A stretch of 42,422 nucleotides of DNA from a virus. Lineage: Duplodnaviria; Heunggongvirae; Uroviricota; Caudoviricetes. The DNA is taken from IMG/VR virus record IMGVR_UViG_2534682157_000018; one strand, given 5' to 3'. The notes under the pieces were generated by a model. The model saw only the letters and a program-made list of their open reading frames with translations, made no database searches and was not told the DNA's origin. The translations under genes and the position numbers were made by a program. This document shows, piece after piece, positions 8,347 through 36,192 of the stretch; the first letter of the stretch is position 1; every line of letters begins with the position of its first letter.

Positions 8347-8804
8347 GGCTTTTTTATCGTATCCTGCTTCTGCTGCTCTTTACCCTGGGCGATGCTGGCT
8401 GCTTCTGCAAGGATCTGCCAGTACAACTCTGGATTCTGCTTAAGCAGCGCGATCCCTCGTTCTGCCGTATATTCCAGTGCAACCTCAACACCATTAACCA
8501 GTTCACCAACCCCTTTCCAGTCTTTCAGCAGATAACGAGCGGCATTATCAATGAGTAAATCATCAACAGAATCCACCTCGGAAACCTTTGAAATATCAAA
8601 CTCCTTCGTTCCGACGTGCAAACTGGCATCCATTTTCTCAATGTGGCGACGGATTAATGCATTACGGGAGCGATACTGATCGTTATCGCTGCTTGCCACC
8701 AACAGTTTTAACCCGTCTACAGGTTTTAAGTCCTTCATTGGCGTAAACCAGCGTTCTCCACCAATGATAATTTTCTGATTAAGAATAAACATCCATAACC
8801 TCAT
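8241..8804 (-). CDS. G: tail assembly chaperone (G-like)
   Basis: Position immediately upstream of tape measure and overlap with a -1 frame ORF; probable start at internal Met (about 8792) with GAGG RBS. Confidence 0.6.
   Translation of the reverse strand: MRLWMFILNQKIIIGGERWFTPMKDLKPVDGLKLLVASSDNDQYRSRNALIRRHIEKMDASLHVGTKEFDISKVSEVDSVDDLLIDNAARYLLKDWKGVGELVNGVEVALEYTAERGIALLKQNPELYWQILAEAASIAQGKEQQKQDTIKKPWLPSGGYRSSGEKGGKRQDGSEKNSGCHRYRNQK
8349..8355 (-). promoter_or_regulatory. programmed -1 ribosomal frameshift slippery heptamer A_AAA_AAG (G to G-T)
   Basis: Minus-strand AAAAAAG in the G frame as A AAA AAG; the T frame is open across it; same heptamer type as dnaX and tail-chaperone shifts. 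Confidence 0.6.
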
Positions 8805-8884
8805 TCAATGCGTCCCCCTGTAGGGCAGTACCACAGGAGGAATAACGGAAAATCAACTAATCGCCTCAGCACTGGCTTTTGCGA

Positions 8885-9814
8885 TCACGGCAGCCGGGGA
8901 ATTTTTTTTCTGGTTATCGTAGGTGCTTCATCTGCTGCGGTAATGCTCAATTGAACCTGGATAATGTCGCTATTACCCCCATCAGGCCATTCACCTGACA
9001 CCTGAACCTTCGGGAAACTGAAAGTGTATGCCCCCTCTCCATTCGAAAGCGTGAAGCTGAACGGAACTGTTTCTCCAGTCAGTGTTTTACTCCAGATTTC
9101 CCACGCGGCTTTAGACCATGAAAGCGTCACCGTACCGGACGGTGTAAAAGTAGTCGGAATATTTGCTCCTGCATAAGGCGAGCCAGTCCCGATACAACGC
9201 TGTGTCTGGAGTTTGTTATCGAACTGAATATCAAAACTGTCGATACAAAAACCGTTACCTCCGGCAACACCATTCAGGCTTACTGCTGAAACCTCCTTAA
9301 ACGAATAACGTAGCTTTCCTGCACTATCCACAGGTTCGCCTTTGATAAAATTCGTATCATCGGCCTTTGATTCCCAGTCCAGTCCGGCAAAGGTTACGGT
9401 CGCTGTAATATCGCCGTCGTTAGGGATCTGCATTTTCCATGAGCCAACCTGCGCTCCTCTGACGACAGAGGCAATTCCGACATCGGACGCATAGGTCGCC
9501 AGAGAAAATGTTATTCGCTCATTCCCCATTGTCAGAGAATCGCCTGACCATTCCGCGCCGAAACAGGATGCAAGAAAATCATCATGTTGACCCCAGCGAA
9601 ATTTGGTACCAACATCACCGCCGACATCCACAGTGCCAGGCGTCGCCCCCTGAGCCATCCGGGAGCCACCAATCTCATTATTTTCGCCTTTATTCTGGGT
9701 GGGTTTTACTCCCCAGCTTGTGCGTTTTAATAAACTCCAGTCACCACTTGCTGGCGTAGTGCCTGCAACCGTCTCCCGGATAAATGCCGAGATAACCTTT
9801 GCACCTGAACTCAC
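8885..9814 (-). CDS. major tail (tube) protein
   Basis: 309-aa ORF directly upstream of the G/GT pair; assignment by synteny only, not lambda V-like by sequence. Confidence 0.55.
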   Translation of the reverse strand: MSSGAKVISAFIRETVAGTTPASGDWSLLKRTSWGVKPTQNKGENNEIGGSRMAQGATPGTVDVGGDVGTKFRWGQHDDFLASCFGAEWSGDSLTMGNERITFSLATYASDVGIASVVRGAQVGSWKMQIPNDGDITATVTFAGLDWESKADDTNFIKGEPVDSAGKLRYSFKEVSAVSLNGVAGGNGFCIDSFDIQFDNKLQTQRCIGTGSPYAGANIPTTFTPSGTVTLSWSKAAWEIWSKTLTGETVPFSFTLSNGEGAYTFSFPKVQVSGEWPDGGNSDIIQVQLSITAADEAPTITRKKIPRLP

Positions 9815-20643: not shown

Positions 20644-22117
20644 TTAGGAGCGCCAAAAAAAACCTGAAAACAATATAATAACAGGATAAATTTCAAGGCG
20701 ACCAAGAATCATAGCTATGCACATTAAACATTTTGCAATGTCATTAAGCACTCCGAATGACGATGCAGTAGCCCCAAAACCTAATCCCATATTATTAATA
20801 CATGCAGCCACTGTTGCAAATGATGTAAGAAAATCATATCCCATACCATTTAACACCAGTATAAAAAACACCGTGAAGAGAGTATAAAGAAAAAGAAACT
20901 CCATACAGACCTCATTACACGATCTGTAACTATCTTCCCTCCTACATTTACACTCAACAACGCTCTGGGATGAGAAAGCTGATTTATCTCGTGTTTGCTT
21001 TGTTTGAAAAGTATAAGAAATCGAAGTGACTTAATTCCACCACAAGTTGAACCTATACATCCCCCAAAGAAACTTGACAACAGCAAAAACACTATCGTGT
21101 GCGTGGGCCAACTTGCATAATCCTGCGTAGCTAAACCATTATCAGTGAGCATGGAGCTGGCAAGAAAAACGAATGAATAAAACTTCCATGCAAGTCATAC
21201 ATACCTATATGCCAGACCTGGAAAGAGGTAACAATGATCACCCCTAAGGCTATTAACAGAAAGAAACGAAGTTCAATATCTCTGATTAAAGGTTTTATCG
21301 TTTTCCTGCTAATAACAATATACCAAAGAGTGAAGTTGAAAGCCGATAGCAGGGAAAAAGAACCAGCCACCAGCTCAACCAAATAGTTATTAAAATATCC
21401 GATACTCTCGCTATGAGTTGAGAAACCACCAAGCGAAACTGTGGAAATCCCGTGACAAATAGCATCAAACAAAGGCATTCCTGCAAGTCTATAACAGACA
21501 ATACAAGCAATACCTAATAAAGAATAAGTTATCCACAGTGTCCGTGACGTATCGGCCAGGCGGGGAGTGAGTTTGTCATCCTTAAATGGCCCCGGCATTT
21601 CTGACTGATAAAGCTTTGCACCACCAATACCCAATAATGGCAATACAGCAACCGCCAGAACAATAACTCCTAAACCACCTATAAAATTTAACTGTGACCG
21701 ATAGTACAAATATTCCCGAGGTAATGAACTAACATCATCAATTACAGTTGCTCCTGTTGTTGTTATTCCAGAAACCCCTTCAAACAGAGCATCAATGAAC
21801 GTTAAATTAAGTTCTGAGTCAATCCATAAAGGGAATGCACTAATAACAGAAAACAAAATCCAAAACATTACAATTATAATAAACCCATCACGGGTACGTA
21901 ATTGAATGCCAGATTTCTTAGTTGTATACCACGCTCCGCCACCAATGCAAAAAAATATAACGAAAGTTATAAAGAAAACGAACAGGCTTTTTTCTTTATA
22001 AAACAATGCTACAACCATTGGTGGCAACATTGAAAGACTATAGAGCCAAACCAGGAACCCACACATATGAGTAACAACTCTTACATGAGATGTATTCATA
22101 TCTAAATATTCTTTCAA
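20644..22117 (-). pseudogene. trkG: TrkH/TrkG-family potassium uptake protein, read in three frames
   Basis: N-part 21131..22117 is TrkG-like; fragments 20850..21152 (GGCIGSTCGGIKSLRF...) and 20644..20904 (...GRLEIYPVIILFSGFFWRS) continue it in shifted frames; an A5 run (21165-21169) lies at the first junction and a T3-C-T5-C-T3 tract at the second (20887-20897, near 20900). Confidence 0.7.
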
Positions 22118-22236
22118 TTATAACCACCTTGCTGCAATATTATGATTATACTGTATAAAATTTAACTCCTCTTAGATCTTACTTCACTGTTCCTTATGAA
22201 ACAATCATCAAAATGAATCATATTGTAGTTAAGATT

Positions 22237-22701
22237 TTACTTTAAACACTGCTCGGTTATGTATTGCTGAGCACCTTCAAGTTGGGCCTGCATCATTACC
22301 AGTCGTTCCCGGAGGGTGAAATAATCCCGTTCAGCGGTGTCTGCCAGTCGGGGGGAGGCTGCATTATCCACGCCGGAGGCGGTGGTGGCTTCACGCACTG
22401 ACTGACAGACTGCTTTGATGTGCAACCGACGACGACCAGCGGCAACATCATCACGCAGAACATCATTTTCAGCTTTCGCATCAGCTAACTCCTTCGTGTA
22501 TTTTGCATCGAGCGCAGCAACATCACGCTGACGCATCTGCATGTCAGTAATTGCCGCGTTCGCCAGCTTCAGTTCTTTGGCATTTTTGTCGCGCTGGGCT
22601 TTATAGGTAATGGCGTTATCACGGTAATGATTAACAGCCCATGACAGGCAGACGATGATGCAGATAACCAGAGCGGAGATAATCGCGGTTACTCTGTTCA
22701 T
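22237..22701 (-). CDS. Rz: spanin inner-membrane subunit Rz
   Basis: Translation [41 protein letters not shown]... is near-identical to lambda Rz from memory; ATGA overlap with endolysin stop. Confidence 0.85.
22296..22481 (-). CDS. Rz1: spanin outer-membrane lipoprotein subunit Rz1 (embedded in Rz, +1 frame)
   Basis: 61-aa [27 protein letters not shown]... with lipobox and proline-rich region; fully inside Rz. Confidence 0.8.
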
Positions 22702-23195
22702 TGCTGACCCCACAAACAGATTTCACGCTCAATCTCACGACGAGTCATGAGACCTTTCCATTGCTTACCGCCAGCATATGTCCAGCGACGTAGCTGATCA
22801 CATGCGCCTTTGATATCGCCCTGGTTTATTTTGCGAAGAAGCGTCGATGTTCTGAAATTGCCAGCACCCACGTTGTAAACGAATGAGTAAAGAGCGCCGC
22901 GCGTTGTTTCCGGTATATCGACTTTGATGTACGGGTTAATTTGTCTGGCGACCGTGGCAAGGTCTTTATTCAGGAGGGCTTTGCATTCTGCTTTGGTATA
23001 CGTTTTACCGAGCATGATGTCTTTTCCTGTATGCCCGTGACATACAGTCCATACACCAACAATATCTTTGTATGGTATGTAGCTGACACCTTCCAGACCA
23101 TCGTTACCACTTGGGCCAGTGATTAACACTGATGCTATAGCAATTGCTCCGCCACCAATAGCAGCAGCAACGACTTTTCGTAATGATGGAGGCAT
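22698..23195 (-). CDS. R: SAR endolysin (phage 21 R-type lysozyme)
   Basis: 165-aa ORF with Gly/Ala-rich N-terminal signal-anchor-release segment ([18 protein letters not shown]); matches phage 21 R as I recall it. Confidence 0.85.
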
Positions 23196-23410
23196 TATTC
23201 ACCTCTCGCAGCCTTGCGCTTATCTTCTTTAATCTTGAAATAAAGGTTTGTCAGGTACGTCAGCAGGCCAAATACCAGACTACCCAGCACACCGATTGCA
23301 GCCCACTGTGACGGAGTTACTCTATCGAGCAACTGTAAAAACCAGTAGCCAGCACTGCCTGCGGAGGTGCCGTAGGCAATGCCTGTTGAAATTTTGTCCA
23401 TGGATTTCAT
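23195..23410 (-). CDS. S: pinholin (phage 21 S-type), dual-start motif M-K-S-M
   Basis: [26 protein letters not shown]...[17 protein letters not shown] resembles S21 68/71 from memory; strong GGAGGTGA RBS; overlaps endolysin start. Confidence 0.85.
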
Positions 23411-23510
23411 AGCCTCACCTCCGCACGGAACGGATGGCATAGTTATTATGTGTAGGCTTTCAGACACATCAATCAGAGCCTTAATTGATATATATGCTGG
23501 AGACGATGCA

Positions 23511-23536
23511 ATATAAAAAGCTCGCCGTAGCGAGCT
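23511..23536 (-). terminator. intrinsic terminator between lipoprotein gene and holin
   Basis: On minus strand: AGCTCGC-TACG-GCGAGCT stem-loop followed by T5. Confidence 0.45.
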
Positions 23537-23661
23537 AATAAAATGTATTTCTCTGATATTATGTTTATTTGTATTAGCTCAGACTTGACATCACAGGTTT
23601 CGTATATAGAACATCATCAAATCTGTCAGTTTGCTATGAATGAGATATAGTAATTGAAGAG

Positions 23662-24057
23662 CTAACCTCGCATGTCAAAGCCAGATTTCTGAAAATCTCT
23701 GTAGACTTCCGGATTGTTAAAGGCCGGAAATTTGGCTTTATGAGCTGCGGACTTTATCGCTTCGCAATAGGCTTTATCACCGTTACTGGTAGATATTTTT
23801 AACGCCGTGCCATCCTGAGAGAATTCCATATGCAACCTGCATTTTTTCCCTTTCCAGTTATGCGGCTCATCAAGTTTGGCATTAATTGCAGCTCTGATTC
23901 CCCGCGCTTGCGCCCCCCATTCATCCTGATCATCCCAGCGTCCTGAACTGCAACTACCTGTAGCAGTAGTTTTGTGGCAATCTGAAGGGTGTAAAGGTGT
24001 GCATCCCGCAACAAAACCGACCCAAAAAGTCAACATAACGATTTTCTTTAATCCCAC
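23662..24057 (-). CDS. putative lipoprotein (moron, paralog A)
   Basis: 131-aa ORF with signal peptide and lipobox FVAGC; C-terminal half homologous to the neighbouring lipoprotein. Confidence 0.6.
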   Translation of the reverse strand: MGLKKIVMLTFWVGFVAGCTPLHPSDCHKTTATGSCSSGRWDDQDEWGAQARGIRAAINAKLDEPHNWKGKKCRLHMEFSQDGTALKISTSNGDKAYCEAIKSAAHKAKFPAFNNPEVYRDFQKSGFDMRG

Positions 24058-24207
24058 TTCTTGCTCCTCAATCCATTAAAATCTCAGCAATAGTAGTTGT
24101 TACGTCCGCCACTGGCTCAGAGCTGACTATCCGCTAAATTTAGCTCAGTGCCGTAGCTGTGTCAGAACAAACCTAAGCCGAAACCGTTTATTACAAAACA
24201 ATAAATA

Positions 24208-24636
24208 TCAGGGTTTAAAATCCAGCACCCCATTTTGAAATACTTTATATACTTCCGGCGAAGGGGGGGCAGGTATATCAGCATTCTTTATCGCATTCAT
24301 CGCTTCACGACATAAATCGAGGTCTCCACTTTCTCTTTTAACCTCCAGTAGAAGGCCATTCGGGGCCATATGCATTCTCAGTGTACACTCTTTTCCTGAA
24401 TACTTACTCGCATCCCCGAACTGTTTTTCGATGGCGCTCTTGATTTGATGGGCATACAGACGGATATCCTCACTAACATCAGAAGTACGTTCAGATGAAC
24501 TCACATACTGTGTCTCTATTGCTTTATCGGAGTAATATGATGTACGGTCATGATAATTTGTCGATACAGCATCAGTGCACCCGATAATAATCCCACTAAT
24601 AATCAACGTAAGAATTGATGCGCTACGAAAACCCAT
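24208..24636 (-). CDS. putative lipoprotein (moron, paralog B)
   Basis: 142-aa ORF with lipobox IIGC; shares the C-terminal motif set with paralog A. Confidence 0.6.
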   Translation of the reverse strand: MGFRSASILTLIISGIIIGCTDAVSTNYHDRTSYYSDKAIETQYVSSSERTSDVSEDIRLYAHQIKSAIEKQFGDASKYSGKECTLRMHMAPNGLLLEVKRESGDLDLCREAMNAIKNADIPAPPSPEVYKVFQNGVLDFKP

Positions 24637-25224
24637 TTTTCCTCACATATGTCATATAGTAAAGGATTATATATACCGTTGTTTTGGACGCTCAAACAGC
24701 GAATCAGATCAAATAAAACGCACATTTGTTAACATTTACACAAAGTCTGCGTGGGATATTCTGAAAGAATATCCATAATGTGGAGAGAATCTATTGAAGT
24801 GCATGGTGCCGGGTGCCTCCCGGTGAACAAAATGTTCGTGATACCTGTCGGCGACAGAAAAGGTTAATGGTATCACCCCACCGCACAGGGGGATTCACCA
24901 TGCAGGAGTTTTCTTAGCAAACTCACTGCGCGCCCGGCAACTCCCAACCACATAAAATGCGGAGTTTGTGGTATTTATGCATATAACTCGCAGGAATTAT
25001 CTTAAAAAACTGATGTCGATCCGGATTAAAAAGAAGCAGGTCATCATCAGATGACTGGAAAAAAGGAAACAAAAAATACTCATCATACAGTTTTGATTGC
25101 AGGGATGAGCCTGCTATGCACAATATGCAGAATATAAGCAAGATAAAAATATGCAGGCATATTATTTCGGATTTTGTTATTAACACAACCTTTTTAATAA
25201 TCATTTGGCATACAATAAACCAGC

Positions 25225-25252
25225 CCAAAAAGAACCGCCTAAACAGGCGGTT
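25225..25252 (-). terminator. intrinsic terminator (candidate tR'-like) downstream of Q
   Basis: On minus strand: AACCGCC-loop-GGCGGTT stem followed by CTTTTTGGG. Confidence 0.5.
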
Positions 25253-25572
25253 GGTCAATACAAAGGATGCTTCGTCTTTATTATAGTAATCTGAGGCGTC
25301 GGGTGTCTTGTATCAGACAACATATTGTCCCGCTAAACAGCGAATTACAAACCACCCTGCAATGATCTCTCATCTCATTTTATATGAGTTGACGACATCA
25401 GGATAACGCATCATCAGCCCCTGCCAAGAAATATCAAAACTCCCGCCAGCAATGTGTTATCACAATATTGTAAAAAAAACACAGCACCGAAACTATAACT
25501 GGTCTCTGTTATAATTTGGAGCAGAAAGACCAGTTGCCCAACTAGCAGCATTCTCCCCTGCTTTCCTGACGT

Positions 25573-25599
25573 AAAAAAACCGCATTAAGCGGTTTTTTT
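25573..25599. terminator. bidirectional intrinsic terminator about 80 nt downstream of Q stop
   Basis: A7-CCGC-ATTAA-GCGG-T7: symmetric stem-loop with A-run on one side and T-run on the other. Confidence 0.6.
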
Positions 25600-25679
25600 A
25601 CGATGTCCATGTCTGCAATCCGCCTCGCGATACAGCTTTGCGAAGCATAGCAAAATTGAAGCAGTTTATACGTAAGAAA

Positions 25680-26222
25680 TCAAGCCATTTTCTCAGCAAA
25701 TGATTCACGCATGGGAATATATAGGGCATACTCAGCAACAGCTAACCAATTAGCAATCCGTTTTTCGCATGTGCTAAAACACCACTCTGGGTGTGCATCA
25801 TTTAGCAATTCAGCCATTTTGCGCTTAGTCATCCCCCGCCCTTCATAGCGTTGCCGGAGAATGCAAATCAATCCTGGATGCTCTGCCAGCACCTCACTTA
25901 TGACTCGATCAATACATAACGCCTCTGCATCAGTACAATGCGCCAGCCAGCTCTTTTGCTTGCCGTTGATCATCTCTCGCAAAAACGCTTCCAGCTCAGC
26001 TTTCTCTATTCCCGCTTTTTTCATTCTGCGCAGGGCTTCATTAATGGCTGTTTTCGTCAGTTTTTTGGATGCCAACAACTGATTGAACATATTCCCTGAC
26101 CTGCCACCGCCAATATACGACCAGCGCCCCCACATACGTAGTTTTCCCTGAATCCAGACACTTTCCAGCGTGGTGAGGCGAAGGTGTTCTCCGCTTTTTC
26201 CTGTATTCGTTGGATAAATCAT
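25680..26222 (-). CDS. Q: late-gene antiterminator Q-like protein
   Basis: 180-aa ORF directly upstream of terminators and lysis cassette, downstream of nin-type genes; assignment mainly by synteny, family not verified. Confidence 0.55.
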   Translation of the reverse strand: MIYPTNTGKSGEHLRLTTLESVWIQGKLRMWGRWSYIGGGRSGNMFNQLLASKKLTKTAINEALRRMKKAGIEKAELEAFLREMINGKQKSWLAHCTDAEALCIDRVISEVLAEHPGLICILRQRYEGRGMTKRKMAELLNDAHPEWCFSTCEKRIANWLAVAEYALYIPMRESFAEKMA

Positions 26223-26509
26223 AAATGACCTTTCTTTCTCCAGATTTCTTGTGTGCGAAAAACCCCTTCAGCATGCATCAGGCGCAATTCTTCTTTGGTG
26301 TAATCGCTGGTTTTTACCCGCCCGTCGATTAGATCGTGGCATGAGCTACAGGCTATCGCCGCCTGCATATCGTGTGGTTTTGTCGCTGTTCCGCACGTCC
26401 CCGCCAGCCTGTAATGCGCCAGCACAGAGGTTTCGGGATTGTGATTGCAGTAGCCAGGGATTCTGATCTGGCACATCTGGCCTTTAGCCGCTTTACGTAA
26501 ATTCACCAT
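26219..26509 (-). CDS. YbcO-like (DUF1364) putative nuclease
   Basis: 96-aa ORF with CQIRIPGYCNHNPETSVLAHYR and Cys/His cluster resembling DLP12 YbcO from memory. Confidence 0.65.
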   Translation of the reverse strand: MVNLRKAAKGQMCQIRIPGYCNHNPETSVLAHYRLAGTCGTATKPHDMQAAIACSSCHDLIDGRVKTSDYTKEELRLMHAEGVFRTQEIWRKKGHL

Positions 26510-27108
26510 TACGCAAACTCCAGTAGTTGTGCGGCCACATTTTCAACTTCCTCCTGAGAGGAGAATTTACGGAACAGAATCCAGTTCCACAGCACATTCA
26601 GTACAGATTTATAAACCTGCTGAAACTCGACTTCGTCCATATTCGCAAAAGCGATGGATTTTGCCCGACGCCCACGGCTACCGTCCGGATAAAAATGTTC
26701 GGTGTAAAATCCAGCCTGAATGGTTACCCACTCGCGAAAAGCCTCAAACGACTTTAGCAATGCCGTATCCCGGGTTCTGCGTGTCGCAACTGTGTTCAGA
26801 TATTGCTCTGCGGCATCACTCAGGGCTGGCGTGTGTTCCCGACCAACTGATTCGCACAGGTAATCAACGAAACCAGACAGCAGTTCTCGTTCGCGAGGCG
26901 TGATCGCCCCACCGACCGGAGTCCAGTAATCGAATCCCAGTTGCAGGAGTTTGAAAAAACGCTTGTGGAATGCGTAGTTACGCACACGCTTAAAGTCTGC
27001 GTGTATCCACTCACCTATTTTGATTTGATGCAGAAAATCGCAACTCTCCGGCGTCGCCGGGAGAAGTAAACCAGAAGAAGTTTGTTTGACCAGTTGTATA
27101 TGCGCCAT
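26509..27108 (-). CDS. nin-region protein (DUF1367-like)
   Basis: 199-aa ORF with 4-nt coupling to the downstream gene; family from memory only. Confidence 0.45.
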   Translation of the reverse strand: MAHIQLVKQTSSGLLLPATPESCDFLHQIKIGEWIHADFKRVRNYAFHKRFFKLLQLGFDYWTPVGGAITPRERELLSGFVDYLCESVGREHTPALSDAAEQYLNTVATRRTRDTALLKSFEAFREWVTIQAGFYTEHFYPDGSRGRRAKSIAFANMDEVEFQQVYKSVLNVLWNWILFRKFSSQEEVENVAAQLLEFA

Positions 27109-27574
27109 TTCTCAATCTCTCGATGGCGCAGTGCAGCAGATGCCAGTTGTTCAGGCTGACGTATAAAGTATAAATAAACTGGTTCCAGTGTAAAGCCCCC
27201 ACCTTAATGGAATAAAAACCAAACAACAGATTGCTGGGATACAAACAACGCTTATTATTAAAAGCGGTTAAACAAATTAAATTTTAATGTTATGCAAATC
27301 TACCAGATCACCATAATATCTCATTTGAAAACCACTGAAATAACAACCCTATCAGGATTAATCATATTAAGGTGAGTAAATATGGAAAACAACAAATCTG
27401 CACATTACGCTCCTTTTTTATCTGTAATACTTTTTGTTTTATGCTGTGCGTGGGCATTATTTTTATAAAAATATTTACAGATAAAATAAACCCGCCAAAG
27501 CTGGTTAAGTGTGGGTGCGTTGAGGATGCATAATACATCAGAGGTGGCGAGGGATTTCTCCCTCGCCCGGTCTC

Positions 27575-27787
27575 TTACTCCTCAGGTTCGTAAGCTGTGA
27601 AGACAGCGGCCTCCGTCTGCCCGGTTCGGATTCGTACCTCGCAGAGGTCTTTCCTCGTTACCAGTGCCGTCACAATGACGGTTAAACAGATGACGATCAG
27701 GGCGATTAACATCGCCTTTTGCTGCTTTATAGCCTGCTTCTCCTTGCCTTTCGGCACGTAAGAGGCTAACCTACATGTGCAAAGCAT
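27575..27787 (-). CDS. hokD: Hok-family type I toxin (HokD/RelF-like core), maximal ORF with N-terminal extension
   Basis: C-terminal 45 aa MLIALIVICLTVIVTALVTRKDLCEVRIRTGQTEAAVFTAYEPEE is near-identical to E. coli HokD/RelF from memory; the codon where I recall the HokD start Met is ATA here; an in-frame ATG at 27787 has a GAGG 8 nt upstream. Confidence 0.8.
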   Translation of the reverse strand: MLCTCRLASYVPKGKEKQAIKQQKAMLIALIVICLTVIVTALVTRKDLCEVRIRTGQTEAAVFTAYEPEE

Positions 27788-27941
27788 GAAATTGGCCTCA
27801 GATTAATGTTAAGCGTCTTGCCGGACGCGTAATGTTAACTGGGGCTTTTCTCTATCTGCCTTTGGTGTTCATGCCCGAGGCAGATAGCCTCAAGCACCCG
27901 CAGCAATTCTACTTAACTCCCGTCACCTCGCCAATATAAAA

Positions 27942-28031
27942 TCAATCAGAAAGGCGATCCATAAGAACAACAGCAAGACAATAAATTGCTATTACAGCAG
28001 CAATAGCCAGCGCACATTTGAGAACCAGCAC
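27942..28031 (-). CDS. candidate small hydrophobic peptide (29 aa)
   Basis: AGGAGG 5 nt upstream of GTG start; translation (M)LVLKCALAIAAVIAIYCLAVVLMDRLSD is one predicted TM helix plus an acidic tail; below ORF-track cutoff. Confidence 0.35.
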   Translation of the reverse strand: MLVLKCALAIAAVIAIYCLAVVLMDRLSD

Positions 28032-28356
28032 GACAACCTCCTGTATTGGACGCACACCAGTCCTGATAAATATGAGGCTGTCTCGTCAGTGATTCAATAC
28101 AACTATTGGGTATAGTTTATCTATTTTTCTTTGGCAATGGAACACAACAGCCAAACATAACCAACACTTCTTCAGATGTATTAAGTCAGGCCCCAACCAG
28201 CATTTTGAGTAAGCAGTTCACTCAAATATGACTATCTGATTTGAGCGACGTGCGAACATTTACGATAGCTTCACTATGATTGGTACATTCTGCAATCTCT
28301 TTGTCTCAGAAAGTCGAAAGTAGCTTAAGCTATATTATCAAGAGGATAATCATCAC

Positions 28357-28389
28357 ATTGAAGGTCGATACGTTACCTTCAATGTGACA
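28357..28389 (-). other. 11-bp perfect inverted repeat about 10 nt downstream of the NTPase stop
   Basis: CACATTGAAGG-N11-CCTTCAATGTG; no clean U-tract on the minus strand, so it may be a stability or regulatory hairpin rather than a terminator. Confidence 0.35.
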
Positions 28390-28398
28390 ATCTATTTA

Positions 28399-30655
28399 TT
28401 ATTGAATTTGCAGGTTTGTACGTAAGGAACCTGTAGATTCCTCATATAACTTAGATATATAATTAGACATATCATGGTTACTTCGTACTTTTTTATTGAA
28501 TTTTTTCAGGTACTTATCAACCGTAGTGCTAAGTAGCCCTGAGTCGTCTGTAACGTGAGTTATCCCTAAATTAATCAAAACACCTAATTTATTTTTTTCC
28601 ACTAAGCTATCAAATGCGGATTTATCCCCGAGCTCATTCAGTGTTGATGCTATGAAGAAACGTGCATAATCAATATGTTCACCAATTTCCTCATATTGTT
28701 CAATTTGAACTGACAAGTCTTCCAAGGCAGATTTGAAAAAATCATATGCGTAATTGTTACTTAAACACTTTGTGAAAATACAAAGAAGAGCTACTGGTGA
28801 AAACTCCTTCAGCGGGATGTCGGTATTTCCCTTGAGAATATCAACATATAATTTACCTGCATCTATATATGATAAAAAGACTCCCCTCGTTATTTTTTTA
28901 TACGGAGTTAGATATGAAGCCAAATAAAAAGAACCGTTATAAAATAACCTTAAAAATCTTGTTTTATCGTTACTAGGTTTAAGTTCATTAATTTTATCAA
29001 TAAGATATTCATTGTCTCTTAACAAACCAAAATAGAAGAAATAACTATTTGCCCAATAAATATCATAAATATTATCATTTATGTCTATTAGGCCACGCTT
29101 CCTAAGTCCTTCAGCGTAAAAATACTCCATGAATGATCTGTGTAGAAATGAGAACGTATTACTTCTAACATTAACTGTTGTTACTTCACTGCGATAAATT
29201 AGTCTTTTGAAAAGTTTGTCCTCATCAACATTCAAGTTTCTTTTGGCCAAATAATTTAAAAACATGTCCTGCACTTCTGAAATTGATATGCAGTTTAGAG
29301 AGTTATCCATCATAAATATCGCAATTTCTACTAATATATTACTTATTACATCATATTCTGTTTGCGATAATAATCCCTTAGATGTATCCCATCGTCCCAA
29401 TACTATCTCACTGTATTTTGAGTATAGTTCTGTCATTGTAGATGGTAATTCTTTAATCTCATCAGAGAGTATTCTTGCCAGAAGAATAGCGCTCACTGGA
29501 GTCCTGGGAATGAACTTAAATAGTGGTGTTTTTCTATACCATTTTTAAGTTTATTTGTTATTTTAATGTCATTGCAGATTTTATCTACAAAGTCGATTAT
29601 TTGACCTGTGCTAAGTGGTATTATCGAGTATCTTGCAAACATCTGATCGATAACTTCATAGTCCTGAAGAGAATCCATAATTCTTGAAGCAACTAGTAAT
29701 CGAATTTTATCATTCCTGGATACTTTCTCTACAATGTCCCTGAAATTGTTTTGCCTTTCCTCAAGTGATTCCTTTACTTCATCCACCGAATCAACAATTA
29801 ATAAAATATTCCCATCATGTTGTATTTTGTACTTACTTAACACACTTTGTATTATATTTTCAACATTAAGTTTTTTTCTAGAACATCCTTGTATTGACAA
29901 AATACTGGAAGGATGTAGTCTTTTTCGTAAGAATATTCTTCTTTTATTTTTCTAATTAACTGTTTCAGCAAAGTACTTTTCCCAGAGCCAACGGTTCCCT
30001 CTAAAAAAATAAATCTCTCGGCTCTCACAACACTATACAGTTTTAACGGCCTGTGTCTGCGTTTTTTATGATCTTCCTTGCTTACATATCTATCAATAAG
30101 GTTATTTATGCCAACACTACCAAAAAAAGAGCTTTCAGGTGTATCACTTATAGTTTGCAATGTATCTGTTAAGTATTGTTCATAATTAATGGATTCGAAA
30201 TCCCAAAACTCTGGGTAATATTTACTGATTAAAGAACATATTTTTTCACCCTCTATAAATTTTATATTTGTAGATTTGAATTTCAAGTAAATTTTTTCTT
30301 GAGCATTATTTGAGATCGATGAATTAGTAATAACCCAAATTTCATTCAAATGTATGTTCTTAGAGCCAGAAGAAATAAAGCGTGGATATAATTGACACTC
30401 TTCTATTTGTCGTTCAACCTCACTATTTGACTGAATTATCTTTCCAACTTTACAAATAACACCAATATATATTTCCTCGTCTAATGCCTCATCTCGTTTA
30501 ATTATGACAAAATCAGCACCTTTTTCTGATGGTCCTTGCTTATATTCAACATGTGTAACAGTCGGCAAACGTGGTAGAAGCGCTCTTAGCACTGGATGGA
30601 AATCATCAACCTCACGTTGCAATGATTCTATTTTTCTTAAGTATTCTGGTTTCAT
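28399..30655 (-). pseudogene. NACHT-type STAND NTPase with N-terminal Mrr-like (PD-(D/E)xK) domain, read in three frames (29852..30655, 29493..29900, 28399..29496)
   Basis: Walker A GTVGSGKST at the end of the first ORF; Walker B LLIVDSVDE and LLVASR motif in the second; N-terminal GADFVII...EIYIGVICK resembles an Mrr catalytic core; junctions at T7 (29871-29877) and T5 (29529-29533); visibly AT-rich. Confidence 0.65.
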
Positions 30656-30682
30656 TTGTTTACCTTAAACAGTATCCAAAAA

Positions 30683-30721
30683 AATCATTTTATATAACAA
30701 TCATATTTCATACAATGTCAA
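30683..30721 (-). promoter_or_regulatory. candidate sigma70 promoter for the NTPase gene
   Basis: Minus strand TTGACA, then 17-19 nt, then TGTTATATA (extended -10-like), about 30 nt upstream of an AAGG RBS and the start at 30655. Confidence 0.35.
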
Positions 30722-30756
30722 CTATTAGACTCTTTTTCAACATTATAAACCTATTA

Positions 30757-31101
30757 TCAAAGACTAAGGCGACGGATTTCTCCGTCAGGTAATGACCAGA
30801 TAAGGTCAGGATCAACCACAACCGGTTTCTTCACCTTTGCCCTTGATAGTTTTTTGCGGGCGTTTTGCCAGTCTTTACGAACCTGTTCTGAGGGAAATAA
30901 CCCGTAACCAGAGTTGTATACATCACCGCTCGCAACCAATTCTCTGGCAAGAAGGTTCATCAGATATCTTGTCGCACCTGTCTTAGCTTCCAGTTGTCGT
31001 AACGTCTCGCGCCCACTCTGGCGCACGAGTTCAACAACCTGCCCTTTAATTTTTTCCCGCCCTTCTTGTGTAAATACTTTTGCCATAAGCGCCTCCGGCA
31101 A
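30757..31101 (-). CDS. hypothetical protein (114 aa), possibly DNA-binding
   Basis: ORF immediately after the 270-aa gene; basic C-terminal tail. Confidence 0.4.
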   Translation of the reverse strand: MPEALMAKVFTQEGREKIKGQVVELVRQSGRETLRQLEAKTGATRYLMNLLARELVASGDVYNSGYGLFPSEQVRKDWQNARKKLSRAKVKKPVVVDPDLIWSLPDGEIRRLSL

Positions 31102-31914
31102 TCACTTTTCCGATACAATACGGCGGGAAGAATCCGTAATCTGTCGAACAATATCCCGGTGCTTGTTCAGCTCCCGCAGCGCGGCGCAGACTCGCTCCCA
31201 CTTCTGGACATGACTTTTCGCCCGACGCAATTCGCGGTTTGCCATATGCAGCGATGGTAAAACCAGGTCATCCGCTCGCGTTTCAGTAAACGATGGCAAC
31301 GACTGCACAATATCAGCCACAGTTTCTGTTTTAATATCTTCCTGTGTTGCAGCTTCCTGTACTGGTAACGCAACACCTGCTGGCTGAGGAAAGGCTTTAC
31401 CATCGGTTTCCGCTACCGATTCAACTTTCGGCTCTGCTGGTAAATTATCACCCGGTATGCAGTAACGAAATTTACCGTTCTGATTAATGCGAATCAGACG
31501 ACCTTTGCTGATAGCCATTGCCAGCGTTGAAGCCACTTTGCGTGATGTGGTACCGAACAATGTAGCCAACTCATCAGCCGTTTGTGGTCCGCGTTGTTCA
31601 ATCGTCGCGGTTAAATCGCACTCTGAGATTTTCGCTACTGTTGCTGTGGTGGTTTCTTCCGGCAGTTCTGCCTGCGCTGGCTGTTCCTGCTGAACGTTGT
31701 TATCAGCCACACGCCAGGTGTACGCGCTTTTATCAACAAAACCAGCCTTTTTCAGTTCCCATAGTTCGTTCAGCACTTCTTCACGACTGATATCAAGTCG
31801 CGCAGCAAGTTCTATGGATGTGGCTTTTCCCATTGCTTTCAGTGCGTCAAAAACAGTCTCCATTAAATTTTTCTCCCGGTAAAAATTACTTCGCAATTCC
31901 TGGCTGGACGACAT
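31102..31914 (-). CDS. hypothetical protein with N-terminal winged-HTH-like segment (possible YdaW-like)
   Basis: 270-aa ORF; likely start at internal Met ([30 protein letters not shown]..., about 31863); follows the DnaC-like gene. Confidence 0.4.
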
Positions 31915-32632
31915 TCGGACGCCAGCTCTCCCAGTTAAAATTCACCCATCGCCCGCCGTTCATGGTCATGCGATCCATAATCCGCTCGCCGAGCAATGTT
32001 TTCATGGCCTCATAGTTCAGGTTTGTCAGCATCCCCACGCTGCGCATCGACGCTGTCCGGCGATCAACAATCTGGTGCAGTACCACCTGCTCGTTTTTCG
32101 TCTCGCGCTGAATGCCAATTTCATCAAGAACCAGCAGATCCACTTCGCACAGTTCCCGCAAAAATTTTTCGCCTGACTGCCCATCGTCATAGCTGGCGTG
32201 CAGGGCACTCATAACATCAGCCACGGTAACCACAATCACTGTCTGACCGTCTTTCAGCAGGTGATTCCCGATAGCTGCCGCTAAGTGGTTCTTCCCGGTA
32301 CCAGGTTTTCCGCTGAACGCAAAATTTGTACACCCGGTCATCAGTTCATCAGCGATGGATTTCGCCTGACTCAACGCGTATCGCTGCCCTTCGTTCTGCA
32401 CCTGGTAATTCGAAAACGAGCATTTGCGGTGCAATGGCTGGATGCCAGAGCGATTCAGAATTTTTTCCACCCGCAACTGACGATTCTGACGGTTGATCTC
32501 CTCACAACGTTTCTGGCCTTCGGAAAGTTGCCACTCGCGCCACTCCGCTACCGTTTTGAATGGGGCGGTTACATGTGGCGGGGCCAGTCTACGGATACGT
32601 TCAAGAATGCCGCCTGCCGCAATATTTTTCAT
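31886..32632 (-). CDS. ydaV: DnaC-like replication protein (helicase loader)
   Basis: 248-aa ORF with [18 protein letters not shown] and DLLVLDEIG motifs; strong similarity to E. coli DnaC from memory. Confidence 0.8.
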
Positions 32633-32638
32633 GGTCAG

Positions 32639-33444
32639 TTACCCCCTGAAGCCTGGCGGGATCGCACTATCCGGTAACGAGACGGTGTTAACCTGTCGGA
32701 GTAACGTCTCAGGTCGAACACCTTTTGGCGCGAACAAGCCCTGGTATTCATTGGCGATGCTGTGTCGAATCACCTGCTCAGGTGAAAAACCCTGCTGGCG
32801 GAATTTTTCCAGCTCCCGTATCGCCCCGTTAGCACCCTGCTCCGTTCGAATCGGTTTACGCAATGCCTGGCGAAATTCAACCCACTCACGCCAAAGCGAG
32901 ACAGAAATCCAGTTCGGCAAAGCAATATCCAGAGGGTCAAACTTTTTGACACCTCGATTCCCCCGGGGGGGATTTAGGGGGGGATCTTTTTTAGATCTTT
33001 ATCTGTATCTTTATTAGTTGCCTTTGTGTTGACATCATGTTCAAACACCACTTCAACATCTGTTTGAACACCTGTTAAATTTCTCTCTTGTTTTGTTTGA
33101 ACATCTGCTTCCTTTCTGCTTCTTCTGGCCTGAACAGATGCTTTTCCTGCGGCTGATTTTTTGGTTAATTTTTCCCTGACTGATGCCAGATCTTCCTCAA
33201 TCCGAAGATGCACCCATTCCTCGCCGTTATCGCAAAAAAACTCCTGCAAGGATGGTTCAACATCAGCCCATCGCTCGTTAGTCAGACGGGCAATTTTTGC
33301 CAGCCTGTTTTTAGGTATTGGCTTTCCTGTTTGCCAGTAATTGAACATCAGCAACAAATACGCACCATGCTCCTCTGCTGACAAATGCATGGTGTCAGCC
33401 AGGTAATCAGCTATGTACAGTTGCATGTATGGTAATGCGGCCAT
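32639..33444 (-). pseudogene. ydaU: replication initiation protein (YdaU/DUF1376-like N-domain + DnaT-like C-domain), read in two frames
   Basis: N-part 32974..33495 (likely start MAALPYMQLYIADYL at about 33444) and C-part 32639..32920; C-part frame is open upstream across the N-part stop; junction lies in a C5/G7/G7/T6 tract (32960-32992). Confidence 0.5.
33038..33107. repeat. three copies of a 10-bp element TGTTTGAACA / TGTTCAAACA inside the replication gene (iteron-like)
   Basis: TGTTCAAACA at about 33038, TGTTTGAACA at about 33062 and 33098. Confidence 0.3.
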
Positions 33445-33517
33445 AATTGCCCCGTATGATGCTGCCCGGTTGCTTAGAATAAGCACAAACAGCATGGAAA
33501 CTTTTGCTTAATGAACA

Positions 33518-33929
33518 ATGACAGAATCGTCGGAAGACCCGCCGCCGCTGAAATGCGCTTTCCGGTAAACGGCCTGGACTGCATCATCATGCGCATCAAT
33601 TGCCGTACTTAACGCTTCCTGCGCCGCCAGTAATGCACGGCGTTCCAGGGTATCGAAGATGCAGAGTCGGTGACGCAGCTCGCGCGGAAGGATTGCCAGA
33701 ACCGCAGGGATCAGTTTCTGAATTTTTCCCTTTGCGCTTTCGTTTCACCTTTCAACCAACGGTGATAGATATTCTGCTGATTGTTCCAGTCCTTGCCTGG
33801 TACCAGGGGCAATTCGCCGCCCCCCTGGCGCAGATATTCTTCAGTAATGGCATTGGCTACCCATGCCTGCCCTTTTTCAGCAGCCAGGGCTAACAACACT
33901 GATTCGATGTGCTCATGCTTGATTTTCAT
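33518..33929 (-). pseudogene. ydaT: YdaT-like protein, frame-interrupted
   Basis: N-part MKIKHEHIESVLLALAAEKGQAWVANAITEEYLRQGGGELPLVPGKDWNNQQNIYHRWLKGE matches K-12 YdaT from memory; after a T5 run (33723-33727) the -1 frame continues ...QKLIPAVLAI... as in my recalled YdaT; stop at about 33518. Confidence 0.7.
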
Positions 33930-34180
33930 GAATCAACTCCCATCAGCTTTTTCGTAGTAGTTTTATTTTTGCCAATAGTTAAAATTGCATCGGCAGAAAA
34001 TAATCCGTTTGATGCATGAGCGATTTTTTCAGCGTAATTTGTTTCGCCGGTATATTCTGTGCGAGGCAATTTTCCGTTATCCATCCATTTGTAGATTGCT
34101 CTTTGGCTGACACCACAAACGTCGGCCACAACAGAAACGCGAACAGTTTTGATTACATCTTCAAGTGTTTTCTGGTTCAT
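33926..34180 (-). CDS. ydaS: Cro/YdaS-like HTH regulator
   Basis: Start at internal Met (MNQKTLEDVIKTVRVSVVADVCGVSQRAIYKWM...) with GAGGGTGA RBS; HTH motif; divergent from repressor gene; ATGA coupling to ydaT. Confidence 0.6.
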   Translation of the reverse strand: MNQKTLEDVIKTVRVSVVADVCGVSQRAIYKWMDNGKLPRTEYTGETNYAEKIAHASNGLFSADAILTIGKNKTTTKKLMGVDS

Positions 34181-34259
34181 ATCACCCTCACAATGTGAAC
34201 TTTGAGTACATGCTATAACAGAACTGACAGTACATTCAAGAGCGAATATCATTGAACTT

Positions 34260-34679
34260 ATGGTTCATGAAGATAAAGCGCGTAAAGAGTTCGCCAGTAG
34301 GCTTGCGCTAGCCTGTGAAAACGCTGGTTATGAACAACATGGAAGGCAGGCAGAAATTGCCCGTCGAATGAAATTAACACCAAAAGCGGTTAGCAAATGG
34401 TTTAATGGCGAAACAATTCCTCGCCGAGAGAAATTAAGGGAATTAGCAACACTCATTGGAACAACACCAACCTATCTTTTGGGAGAGGATACAGAAGAAA
34501 GTGGACAGGTACGTTTCTATCAGGAGTTAAATCCAAGACAAAAAATCATCATTGACCTTCTGGACGAGCTCCCTGACAGTGAGACAGATGAACTTTTAAA
34601 AACTCTTGAGGAGAAAAAACAGAAGTACAATGCAATTTACGAAGAGTTAGCACGAAAGAAAAAACAAAAAGCCTCTTAA
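34260..34679 (+). CDS. racR: prophage repressor (XRE-family HTH), RacR-like
   Basis: 139-aa ORF with HTH QAEIARRMKLTPKAVSKWFNG; divergent to ydaS-ydaT. Confidence 0.65.
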   Translation: MVHEDKARKEFASRLALACENAGYEQHGRQAEIARRMKLTPKAVSKWFNGETIPRREKLRELATLIGTTPTYLLGEDTEESGQVRFYQELNPRQKIIIDLLDELPDSETDELLKTLEEKKQKYNAIYEELARKKKQKAS

Positions 34680-34966
34680 ACCAGCATAAATCCGGTAGCG
34701 TCCCCCTCCGGGTTTGTGCTTCACTTTATCCCATCTCATTTTTTTACACACAGAATGTACTTAAAGTACTTTACAACAATGAACACAAAGTACATTATAT
34801 ACCTACCAACCCACCCCGCCCCACAGAACGCAGGGCAATACTTCGAGTTACCAGGCAGTGGTCAGGGGTTAAGTAGCCAGCCCGAGGCGTATGAACATGA
34901 CGGCGGGATTCAAATTTTGCAGTGCAGCAGTTAGTTCCGCCACCCGGCGTTAAGGGGAGAGATAAG

Positions 34967-35101
34967 ATGGTGCATTACGAAGTAGTTCAGTATTTGATGG
35001 ATTGTTGCGGTATCACTTACAACCAGGCTGTGCAGGCTTTACGCAGCAACGACTGGGATCTCTGGCAGGCAGAAGTCGCTATACGTAGCAACAAGATGTG
35101 A
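34967..35101 (+). CDS. ydaG: small protein (44 aa), YdaG-like
   Basis: ATG with AGGGGAGAG RBS; MVHYEVVQYLMDCCGITYNQAVQALRSNDWDLWQAEVAIRSNKM; below ORF-track cutoff. Confidence 0.45.
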   Translation: MVHYEVVQYLMDCCGITYNQAVQALRSNDWDLWQAEVAIRSNKM

Positions 35102-35111
35102 GATTCGCAAA

Positions 35112-35267
35112 ATGCAAAAAATCGACCTCGGCAACAACGAATCCCTGGTGTGCGGCGTGTTCCCCAACCAGGATGGAACGTTCACTGCCATGACGTATAC
35201 CAAAAGCAAAACATTTAAAACCGAAACTGGTGCGCGCCGATGGTTGGAGAAGCACACAGTAAGCTAA
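35112..35267 (+). CDS. ydaF: small protein (51 aa), YdaF-like
   Basis: MQKIDLGNNESLVCGVFPNQDGTFTAMTYTKSKTFKTETGARRWLEKHTVS; 3' end overlaps the sieB stop convergently. Confidence 0.45.
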   Translation: MQKIDLGNNESLVCGVFPNQDGTFTAMTYTKSKTFKTETGARRWLEKHTVS

Positions 35268-35752
35268 CGATTAAAACGTCTACTCCTGCTGTTCCAGAAT
35301 AACTTCATAAAATGGGAGTATTTTTCGGTGACGAGATAATAAGAACAGTTTGCGCTATCACTCTGATGTTGAATGATGCCCTTCCGTTCTAATTTTTTCA
35401 TAACCGGGTTACGGCAAGGAGAAGTGATAATAAGATTTCCTGTTTTAAGGAAATCTTTAAATACAGCGATTTCTTTCTCAGATAAACGAAGCAATACTCG
35501 TTGCTCTGGTAGTAATGAATAATGCTTTTGAATATGTGCTCGCAATCTTGAGAAGGAAATGGCGACCACGAAAGAAAAGGCAAAAACGATAATCTGAAAG
35601 AGCCAAGGTATTTCAGTATAAGCATTGAATGCGACAGTAAACTCTTTCGGTATCAGCCAGAGAGTGAGACCAAAAATGATAATCGTATACATAAGTCTTT
35701 CGAGTGGCTCGTTAGCAAAAAGTTTCAACAATGGAGTAAATACATCCAACAT
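35264..35752 (-). CDS. sieB: superinfection exclusion protein B
   Basis: From internal Met: MLDVFTPLLKLFANEPLERLMYTIIIFGLTLWLIPKEF... matches SieB from memory; two TM segments. Confidence 0.8.
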   Translation of the reverse strand: MLDVFTPLLKLFANEPLERLMYTIIIFGLTLWLIPKEFTVAFNAYTEIPWLFQIIVFAFSFVVAISFSRLRAHIQKHYSLLPEQRVLLRLSEKEIAVFKDFLKTGNLIITSPCRNPVMKKLERKGIIQHQSDSANCSYYLVTEKYSHFMKLFWNSRSRRFNR

Positions 35753-36192
35753 ATCAATAACTCTCAACTGTAAGGGTATTGAAATGTTAACACAAGCTCT
35801 CGCTGTAGGGGTATAGCCGAGACCACCGAAGCCCGGAGGTGGTGAAATAAAACCGGGCACAACACGAAGGCGCATTTCCGATATCCATAAAGAGTCGGTC
35901 TTGTCTGTTAAATTTAAATGGTGGGAGTGCGCCTCCGGTTGTAAATAACGACATTGCTGTGTGTAGTCCTGGCGGCATCAGTTTTTTCTTGAAGTTCGGC
36001 TGATGTCCGCCCTTTTTAAAGTGAATTTTGTGATGCGGTGAATGCGGCTAAGCGCACGTGGCACAGTTAAAAGTCATGTTAGTCCTTATTGGTTTGGGTG
36101 GGAAAGCCGACTGTAATTGTTAACTGGTTGCAGTCACCTGGAGGCACCAGGCACCGCATCAACAAAGTTCATTTGTAAAAATGGAGATAATT

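Follow-up and report, generated by a model that had tools for sequence, protein, structure and literature searches.

We examined a window of 42,422 nucleotides (IMG/VR virus record IMGVR_UViG_2534682157_000018), which is a Rac-type lambdoid Escherichia coli prophage, and identified two adjacent minus-strand genes in its late region, here referred to as A and B, as members of the TolA C-terminal domain family (TolAIII, Pfam PF06519). Both encode TolAIII-only lipoproteins rather than bona fide TolA. We propose, at about an even chance, that A and B are energy-uncoupled TolAIII decoys for invaders, tethered to the outer membrane; the general mechanism of an uncoupled competitor of TolA, which this proposal shares with its main rival, has somewhat better than an even chance. 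The original prediction, made from the sequence alone, had described two adjacent minus-strand open reading frames (ORFs) of 131 and 142 amino acids (aa) with lipobox signal peptides, and both were found exactly as described. The two genes and their parts are as follows.

24208-24636, minus strand: gene A, an intact ORF with an ATG start, encoding a 142-aa lipoprotein
Residues 1-19 of A: signal peptide, with the lipobox Cys20 at codon 24579-24577
Residues 21-54 of A: tether, variable, disordered and Ser/Thr/Tyr-rich
24474-24211, minus strand: TolAIII domain of A (residues 55-142)
23662-24057, minus strand: gene B, an intact ORF with a GTG start, encoding a 131-aa lipoprotein
Residues 1-18 of B: signal peptide, with the lipobox Cys19 at codon 24003-24001
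24003-23926, minus strand: N-terminal module of B (residues 19-44), invariant and Cys-containing
Residues 45-131 of B: divergent TolAIII domain

Against PF06519, which has a gathering cut-off of 25, A scored 82.6 bits (E 2.4e-23) and B 54.6 bits (E 1.3e-14). Residues 55-142 of A aligned without gaps to residues 334-421 of E. coli TolA, with 52 of the 88 positions identical (59%) down to the shared C-terminal LDFKP. In case of B, residues 51-129 showed 34% identity to TolA 341-419, and the identity over the 88-residue domain was 31%. The AlphaFold2 models of both proteins start with a disordered N-terminus (residues 1-51 in A and 1-38 in B, with a predicted local distance difference test score, pLDDT, below 50), followed by a domain with a pLDDT of about 90 and an alpha-beta-beta-alpha-alpha-beta fold. 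Foldseek matched the model of A to TolAIII in its complex with the g3p of filamentous phage IF1 (2x9a_B, target-normalised template modelling (TM) score 0.96, root-mean-square deviation (rmsd) 0.6 Å) and the model of B to 3QDP (target-normalised TM 0.92, rmsd 1.2 Å). The profile and structure searches thus resolved the family, which had not been placed before. The Cys pair of TolA, C363-C388, has its equivalent in C84 and C109 of A and in C73 and C98 of B, invariant or nearly so in both families, and a TolAIII-type disulfide is predicted in each protein. The shared motifs first noticed by eye (K.C.L.M, two Cys and PEVY..FQ) are present, and the similarity of A to B far exceeds what chance would give (BLASTP E 2e-18, 29% identity).

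TolA itself, at 421 aa, is about three times as long, and the NCBIfam TolA models were matched only at their C-terminal ends (positions 265-362 of TIGR02794 and 293-386 of NF007065). On NF007065, the model for full-length TolA, A reached 107.8 and B 53.7 bits against a cut-off of 213. Neither protein has the transmembrane domain I or the Ala/Lys/Glu-rich helical domain II of TolA, a lipoprotein signal peptide being found instead, and both genes are located in the late region of a Rac-type prophage and not in the tolQRA-tolB-pal operon. In PHROGs, A and B both fall in phrog_5772, a family with no assigned function. The only other Pfam family above its cut-off was the related TonB_2, for A only. 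No match was found for A or B in PADLOC-DB 2.0 at E values up to 1, and no exclusion or defence family was matched in Pfam, PHROGs or PADLOC. The family that was found is not that of a housekeeping lipoprotein with an unrelated function: TolA is no lipoprotein, and the hub through which group A colicins and filamentous phages enter is its domain III. Since domain III is that hub, the homology would make altered sensitivity to phages or colicins a more specific and more plausible role than it was before.

Both N-termini carry the predicted signature of a lipoprotein, namely a basic n-region, an h-region and a lipobox of the form [LVI][ASTVI][GAS]C about 15-25 residues in. The N-terminus of A is MGFRSASILTLIISGIIIGC followed by TD, with the lipobox IIGC (GIIIGC before TD), and its signal peptide can be divided as MGFR-SASILTLIISGII-IGC into basic n-region, hydrophobic core and canonical lipobox. 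The N-terminus of B is MGLKKIVMLTFWVGFVAGC followed by TP, with the lipobox VAGC (GFVAGC before TP), and its signal peptide divides in the same way as MGLKK-IVMLTFWVGFV-AGC. With Thr, not Asp, at position +2, both proteins are probably sorted to the outer membrane, following the Lol-avoidance rule. At +2, 129 of the 131 B-family members have Ala, Thr or Ser, one has Gly and one Val, and Asp never occurs. The lipobox Cys is invariant across all aligned A-family sequences. Shine-Dalgarno motifs precede both genes (GAGG for A, GGAG for B). The Prokaryotic Genome Annotation Pipeline (PGAP) begins B at an internal ATG (375 nucleotides (nt), 124 aa). The orthologue on pO157 (WP_001453090.1, 88% identical to B) has an ATG at the codon that matches the GTG of B, which favours the 131-aa start over the 124-aa RefSeq call.

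A is annotated by RefSeq/PGAP in identical loci as "tolA, incomplete, pseudogene" of 261 nt (8709-8969 and 6711-6971 in the examined stretches). On TIGR02794, A scored 75.6 bits against a cut-off of 59.45 from its C-terminal domain alone. As this domain alone passes a cut-off that was built for full-length TolA, the pseudogene call is best explained as an annotation artefact, and the label looks wrong whatever the function of A is. A and B are both under purifying selection: the ratio of nonsynonymous to synonymous substitution rates (dN/dS) of A was 0.36 against a variant of 66% identity (0.24 in the domain and 0.50 in the tether), and that of B was 0.08-0.12 among the window, pO157 and Serratia copies. 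Among the 80 best viral-contig loci, 72 encode the full 142 residues of A without a single difference.

B differs from a simple tethered TolAIII by its N-terminal module. Its mature N-terminus of 26 residues reads CxPLHPSxCHKTTAxGSCSSGRWDDQDEW, with two invariant extra Cys; Cys19, 27, 36 and 73 are invariant in 131 sequences. The conservation of residues 19-44 is exceeded solely by that of strand β1, yet this segment is disordered in the AlphaFold model. Searched against the sequences of the PDB, the module gave only chance-level matches (E about 4-5), to the Fe-S motif of hydrogenase small subunits. We also considered the module as a colicin TolB box (DGSGWSSE versus SSGRWDDQDEW) and rejected it, as the spacing and key residues differ. 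A re-targeted or bipartite binding function of B is an idea to which we give little weight.

The label "tandem paralogous" under which the pair was first described misleads as to origin. A is closer to host TolA (59%) than to B (28% over the 88-residue domain); A and B are not (recent) tandem duplicates and have separate evolutionary histories. Their distributions are as follows. A-type proteins formed 46 clusters, and all those with a named source were from E. coli or Shigella. B-type proteins formed 368 clusters, from Citrobacter, Enterobacter, Klebsiella, Raoultella, Serratia, Shigella and others, and B was present in about 20 species-representative Enterobacterales genomes, across which no conserved neighbours of B were found. 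The pair itself, as a 1.3-kb A-B query, matched 785 E. coli records with an identity of at least 99%; of 5426 complete E. coli genomes, 773 (about 14%) covered it to at least 80%. Scans of viral contigs recovered the same E. coli element alone, with no added diversity.

TolAIII-only proteins are also widespread beyond this prophage. A profile search of 1.84 billion representative proteins gave 572 clusters at E ≤0.001. Among the best 150 of these 572, 96 are 170 aa or shorter, and at least 59 of these 96 have a lipobox by a strict test; some other short TolAIII clusters carry ordinary signal peptides. In PLSDB, a B-type gene was found in 607 plasmid records (259 conjugative, 302 non-mobilizable and 46 mobilizable). 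All four of the conjugative records that were sampled belong to the I-complex (IncK2/Z and IncI-gamma/K1), with the B-type gene 68 nt after the relaxase gene, and all three of the non-mobilizable records that were examined are of the pO157 type, with the gene between hok and toxB. A 10-kb bacteriocin plasmid of the ColE1 type from Klebsiella pneumoniae, p1_020030 (NZ_CP028788.2), encodes another lipoprotein TolAIII (WP_001237044.1, lipobox LTAC). Its gene overlaps by 4 nt a gene for a TonB C-terminal domain with a signal peptide (4908-5641 in the examined stretch), and the two adjoin colicin-like tRNase, immunity and lysis genes; they look like matched Tol and Ton decoys. A further lipoprotein TolAIII (WP_001567367.1) lies beside a thioredoxin-fold gene on plasmid pCuAs. 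These Klebsiella plasmid forms are separate lineages with 26-43% identity to A and B. Six domains that were compared aligned without gaps over 88 residues, each ending at the C-terminus of its protein. On the chromosome of Serratia marcescens, the B orthologue is flanked by nrdDG on one side and by a GmrSD_N-domain gene with a HEPN (RiboL-PSP) gene on the other (6001-8736 in the examined stretch), a setting that is like a defence island.

In the proposed mechanism, A and B would face the periplasm as lipoproteins, most likely in the inner leaflet of the outer membrane, each displaying a stand-alone TolAIII, and the disordered 38-51 residues at the N-terminus could act as the tether. As A and B have neither the anchor that couples TolA to TolQ-TolR nor domain II, they could bind the ligands of TolA and could not couple to TolQ-TolR, and force would not be transmitted. 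They would thereby compete with TolA for the TolA-binding segments of group A colicins (of the A, N, K and E1 type), for the N1 domain of filamentous-phage g3p and for the N-terminus of TolB. An invader caught by such a decoy would stall in import, leaving the lysogen or plasmid host tolerant. The targets of the two proteins would probably differ, A being a near-copy of host TolAIII and B having a remodelled surface and the extra invariant N-terminal module. Ligand binding by A and B, their expression in the lysogen and a protective phenotype are predicted parts of this mechanism.

The binding surfaces known for TolAIII are for the most part preserved in A. Both g3p-N1 and the TolB N-terminus bind TolAIII through β-strand augmentation at β3 (PMC7391070), and A keeps this strand (VLDFKP versus PLDFKP in TolA). 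The colicin A site is on the other edge of the sheet, at β2, and comprises L375-P380 together with K368, L392 and K396 (PMC3365938). Of these positions, L375, L376, K379 and K396 are kept in A, with the substitutions K368H, D377E, I378V, P380R and L392M. The logic of the decoy has precedents in artificial constructs, since g3p-N1 in the periplasm sequesters TolA and brings about colicin A tolerance and a 4-log lower phage uptake (PMC10424213). The dissociation constant (Kd) of colicin A and TolAIII is 1.34 µM, and that of TolA and TolB is 40-200 µM according to a review (PMC7391070), with a surface plasmon resonance value of 4.1 µM; these affinities suggest that invaders could be caught by a decoy at little cost to the host system. 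According to Levengood-Freyermuth et al. in 1993, export of TolAIII to the periplasm renders E. coli tolerant to colicins and leaky. The ecology of the genes favours protection of the host over a phage-specific role, because they occur on I-complex, F-type and bacteriocin plasmids (the last paired with TonB-C) and next to defence-like neighbours. Filamentous phage IF1 uses pili that I-complex plasmids encode. A solved structure of IF1 g3p bound to TolAIII is available (2x9a). An apparent induction of a prophage "TolA" in a ciprofloxacin study of enterohaemorrhagic E. coli was dropped as evidence, as the table of that paper names the gene as a tail fibre protein.

More tentatively, and a little short of an even chance, mobile elements of Enterobacterales may carry a large and so far unrecognised class of import-hub decoys, made of short lipoprotein or secreted forms of the TolA and TonB C-terminal domains. 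Such decoys would catch colicins and the adsorption proteins of filamentous phages in the periplasm, conferring a broad tolerance independent of the receptor. A and B would then be two differently tuned members of the class, and the module of B would add a second binding function.

Several observations weigh against the decoy proposal. B has none of the three colicin A cation-pi lysines and its β3 is altered (GFDMRG), and where TolA has a Tyr implicated in the binding of TolB (numbered Y352 in the literature and Y353 in our alignment), A has Gly and B has Asp. The invariant module at residues 19-44 of B is left unexplained by a simple tether plus decoy. As A and B are late-operon genes, high expression is expected at induction, when protection from colicins is irrelevant, and the putative independent promoter is a match to the consensus only, not enriched over shuffled sequences. 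Nuclease colicins E2-E9 bind TolB, not TolA, and the effect of a decoy on them would be indirect. We found no experimental study of A- or B-type proteins in the literature searched, where papers list "TolA protein" as an annotation.

Perhaps the same uncoupled TolAIII is turned against the host itself. Made at high levels from the Q-dependent late transcript, A and B would mainly titrate the N-terminus of TolB, block the TolA-driven mobilisation of Pal, loosen the outer membrane and raise vesiculation, and so aid lysis or the release of virions or cargo. The genes share the strand of the late operon and are flanked by the Q-like gene and the cassette of pinholin, signal-arrest-release (SAR)-like endolysin and Rz, in a slot that otherwise holds stx, whose product is released at lysis, and A keeps the β3 strand that TolB uses. 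Moreover, tol-pal defects lead to hypervesiculation, and modulation of the TolB interaction could regulate vesicle output (PMC7391070). We nevertheless regard this account as improbable. Orthologues of B occur on plasmids and chromosomal islands that have no lysis genes, and in the window a terminator-like hairpin stands between the pair and the holin. The outer membrane is already handled by the spanins, neither protein keeps the Tyr implicated for TolB, and with the low affinity between TolA and TolB very high levels of the decoy would be needed.

The TolAIII fold may also have been re-targeted outside the known Tol clients, above all in B, towards a periplasmic ejection protein of a superinfecting tailed phage, a component of conjugation or of a pilus (surface or entry exclusion) or another imported toxin, with the specificity lying in the Cys module. 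The outer-membrane lipoproteins TraT, Cor and T5 Llp are established exclusion factors. The surface of B is indeed far from that of TolA (31-34% identity) and has lost the colicin A site, its residues 19-44 with their two invariant extra Cys are among the most conserved, and on I-complex plasmids B directly follows the relaxase gene and lies beside the trb transfer genes. On the other hand, no result points to a specific alternative ligand, B showed no similarity to known exclusion or defence proteins in Pfam, PHROGs or PADLOC, its module matched the PDB at chance level only, and the idea fits A poorly, which is 59% identical to host TolAIII; we consider it quite improbable. Decaying fragments of a tolA captured by the phage would account for the PGAP label of A as a partial tolA pseudogene and for the lack of an assigned function of PHROG 5772, and are hardly credible otherwise. 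Neither ORF is interrupted, each has a ribosome-binding site and a complete signal peptide, the lipobox Cys does not vary, dN/dS is 0.08-0.36, and the sequences are preserved (A fully in 72 of the 80 best viral-contig loci, A-B to at least 99% in the 785 E. coli records, B across about 20 Enterobacterales species), the pseudogene call having been traced to the TIGR02794 cut-off that the C-terminal domain passes by itself. Non-function of A and B is effectively excluded.

Compared with E. coli TolA domain III (about residues 334-421; PDB 1TOL, 1S62, 2X9A and 3QDP/3QDR), A and B share the family, the fold, the disulfide pair and the C-terminal end. The surface of domain III binds g3p-N1, colicins A and N and the TolB N-terminus. 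Unlike TolA, A and B, with a signal peptide and a short tether, would be anchored from the opposite membrane and not energised, and they are carried by prophages and plasmids rather than the tol-pal operon. The proposed logic is the same as that of artificial periplasmic competitors such as g3p-N1 (PMC10424213), in which an uncoupled copy of one partner titrates the interaction, with the result that the cell becomes colicin-tolerant and filamentous-phage uptake is lost. These are laboratory constructs, whereas A and B would be natural, lipid-anchored and selected, and possibly tuned to spare the host interaction of TolA and TolB. Periplasmic C-terminal fragments of TonB are said to have served as artificial import-hub competitors as well, in work by Howard in 2001.

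The exclusion lipoproteins Llp of T5, Cor of the phi80, N15 and mEp phages and TraT of F are likewise small outer-membrane lipoproteins of mobile elements that block the entry of competitors, and mEp-type lambdoid phages carry both Cor-type exclusion genes and A/B-type genes. They have no relation to A and B in sequence or fold by Pfam, PHROGs and PADLOC, and Llp and Cor inactivate the outer-membrane receptor FhuA, whereas A and B would mimic the periplasmic import hub and not mask a receptor. The plasmid-borne short lipoproteins WP_001237044.1, WP_001567367.1 and WP_001453090.1 have the same layout as A and B, with a lipobox, a linker and an 88-residue C-terminal TolAIII; the Klebsiella forms differ in being paired with a secreted TonB C-terminal domain or a thioredoxin-fold gene. 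In the papers found, these plasmid proteins appear solely as annotations.

The TolAIII domain is already known, and databases label such genes as "TolA C-terminal domain-containing". What appears to be undescribed in the literature searched is the architecture of a lipoprotein anchor with TolAIII only, its carriage by mobile elements, the pairing with a secreted TonB-C and the size of the class. If the decoy proposal is true, it would represent a new, simple and widespread way in which mobile elements protect their hosts, by mimicry of a hub instead of masking of a receptor. It would help explain why many natural E. coli tolerate several group A colicins at once, and conjugative plasmids would by this means offset the cost of pili that attract filamentous phages. 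It would also bear on therapeutics based on colicins or phages, as such genes are present in about 14% of the complete genomes of E. coli and on hundreds of plasmids, pO157 among them. Natural TolAIII variants may, in addition, separate the binding of parasites from that of TolB.

The surroundings of the pair in the window contain the following features.

25680-26222, minus strand: candidate Q-like late-gene regulator (DUF1133, E 2.5e-107), upstream of A
25572..25598, minus strand: strong hairpin terminator directly after the Q-like gene (folding free energy, dG, -19.7 kcal/mol, z -7.8)
24747..24933, minus strand: homologue of the STnc100-family prophage small RNA (sRNA), directly upstream of A (86.6 bits, gathering score 47)
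24666..24695, minus strand: site resembling a sigma-70 promoter, TTGAGC-18-TATAAT (10 of 12 matches), about 30 nt ahead of the ATG of A
23509..23536, minus strand: terminator-like hairpin (AGCTCGC-TACG-GCGAGCT) with a U-run, between B and the holin (dG -13 kcal/mol, z -2.85)
23195-23410, minus strand: S21/P21-type pinholin (holin S) by profile match, downstream of B
22698-23195, minus strand: lysozyme with a SAR-like N-terminus, in the lysis cassette (22237..23410)
22237-22713, minus strand: Rz of the lysis cassette, with an embedded Rz1 lipoprotein at 22296-22481

The placement of the pair between a Q-like gene and a pinholin was borne out, with a DUF1133 protein that weakly matches Phage_antitermQ upstream and a P21-type holin S downstream. 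The Phage_antitermQ score was 26.1 bits against a Pfam cut-off of 26, so the label "Q-like" is probably fair, if weak; in the structure-database search this protein had no relative with a solved structure. The stretch 17500-42422 matches E. coli strain M8 at 99.6% identity, and the RefSeq order there is intR, xisR, ralR, recET, kilR, sieB, ydaSTUV, a NACHT gene, hokD, DUF1367, DUF1364 and DUF1133, then A and B, followed by essD, rrrD, rzpD, trkG and the terminase genes. The lysis genes are named essD, rrrD and rzpD by RefSeq in the identical loci. The guanine-cytosine (GC) content of the A-B cargo is about 0.42-0.44 against 0.47-0.50 in the adjoining phage genes, and the late regions of related phages hold A and B, A alone or different cargo at the conserved slot. 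In this deviant base composition and in its presence or absence among related phages, A-B is like a moron.

The comparison with the cargo slot of Shiga toxin (Stx) phages also held up. The A variant of 66% identity was found alone in Stx-type late regions in the order tRNA-tRNA-A-nanS-p, which is the position of stx2 in Stx phages. The stx1 and stx2 cargo of lambdoid phages between Q and the holin shares with A-B the position downstream of the late regulator, the low GC and the variable presence, and its product is unrelated. The cargo of the same slot in DLP12 is nmpC. In Stx2 phages the STnc100 sRNA lies 75 nt downstream of stx2 (PMC12370729), so that stx2 is upstream of STnc100 there, and the A-B pair is downstream of it in the window. 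The functional lambdoid phage mEp460_ev081 shares with the window only the block STnc100-A-B-holin (24924-23194) and has a different Q gene, which suggests that the cassette moves as a unit and that a late promoter lies upstream of about 24933. The homology with mEp460 starts at about 24924, at the 5' end of the STnc100 element, and going by this mosaic junction, the late promoter would be located between the terminator at 25572..25598 and about 24933. Compared with the Rfam consensus, the STnc100 copy of the window has an AU-rich terminal hairpin and is missing the U-tract after it; read-through into A would thus be possible, and the element may be the leader of an A-B transcript.

The site at 24666..24695 is a candidate promoter of the cassette that is indistinguishable from background. 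A terminator before the holin, as originally described, is plausible, as a hairpin with a U-run is indeed seen there and would stop read-through transcripts before the holin; it stands less well statistically, since promoter-like and terminator-like sites are no more numerous in this region than expected from shuffling, and the hairpin is not conserved where B sits in other replicons. A promoter or terminator that travels with B was considered and rejected, as the homology to the pO157 and Serratia copies extends only from about 30 nt ahead of the start codon as far as the stop codon.

Between the Q-like gene and STnc100, a promoter-like AAGACA-18-TATAAT was seen about 300 nt past the terminator of the Q-like gene, followed within about 30 nt by a terminator-like hairpin (25233-25309, minus strand), possibly a late promoter with an early terminator. 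The same interval holds an ORF of 111 aa with a TTG start and hydrophobic stretches (24923-25258, minus strand), which has no Pfam match and no RefSeq annotation and is probably not a gene.

Elsewhere in the window, a NACHT-domain gene (about 28399-30655, minus strand; 753 aa in M8) lies between the replication genes and hokD, and its product is likely an anti-phage sensor. Relative to M8, nine single-base deletions were observed in the window (20860-36030), e.g. at 20889, 21165, 25067, 29529 and 29871, eight of them in A/T homopolymer runs of at least 6 and one in a run of 4 A. They split trkG (20644-22099) and the NACHT gene into pieces, leave A and B unaffected, and look like homopolymer sequencing errors rather than true pseudogenes. 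Two more Rfam matches, the RalA antitoxin sRNA of the Rac RalR/RalA system (40688-40866, minus strand) and the sok antisense RNA beside hokD (27725-27899, minus strand), are ordinary features of Rac and lambdoid prophages.

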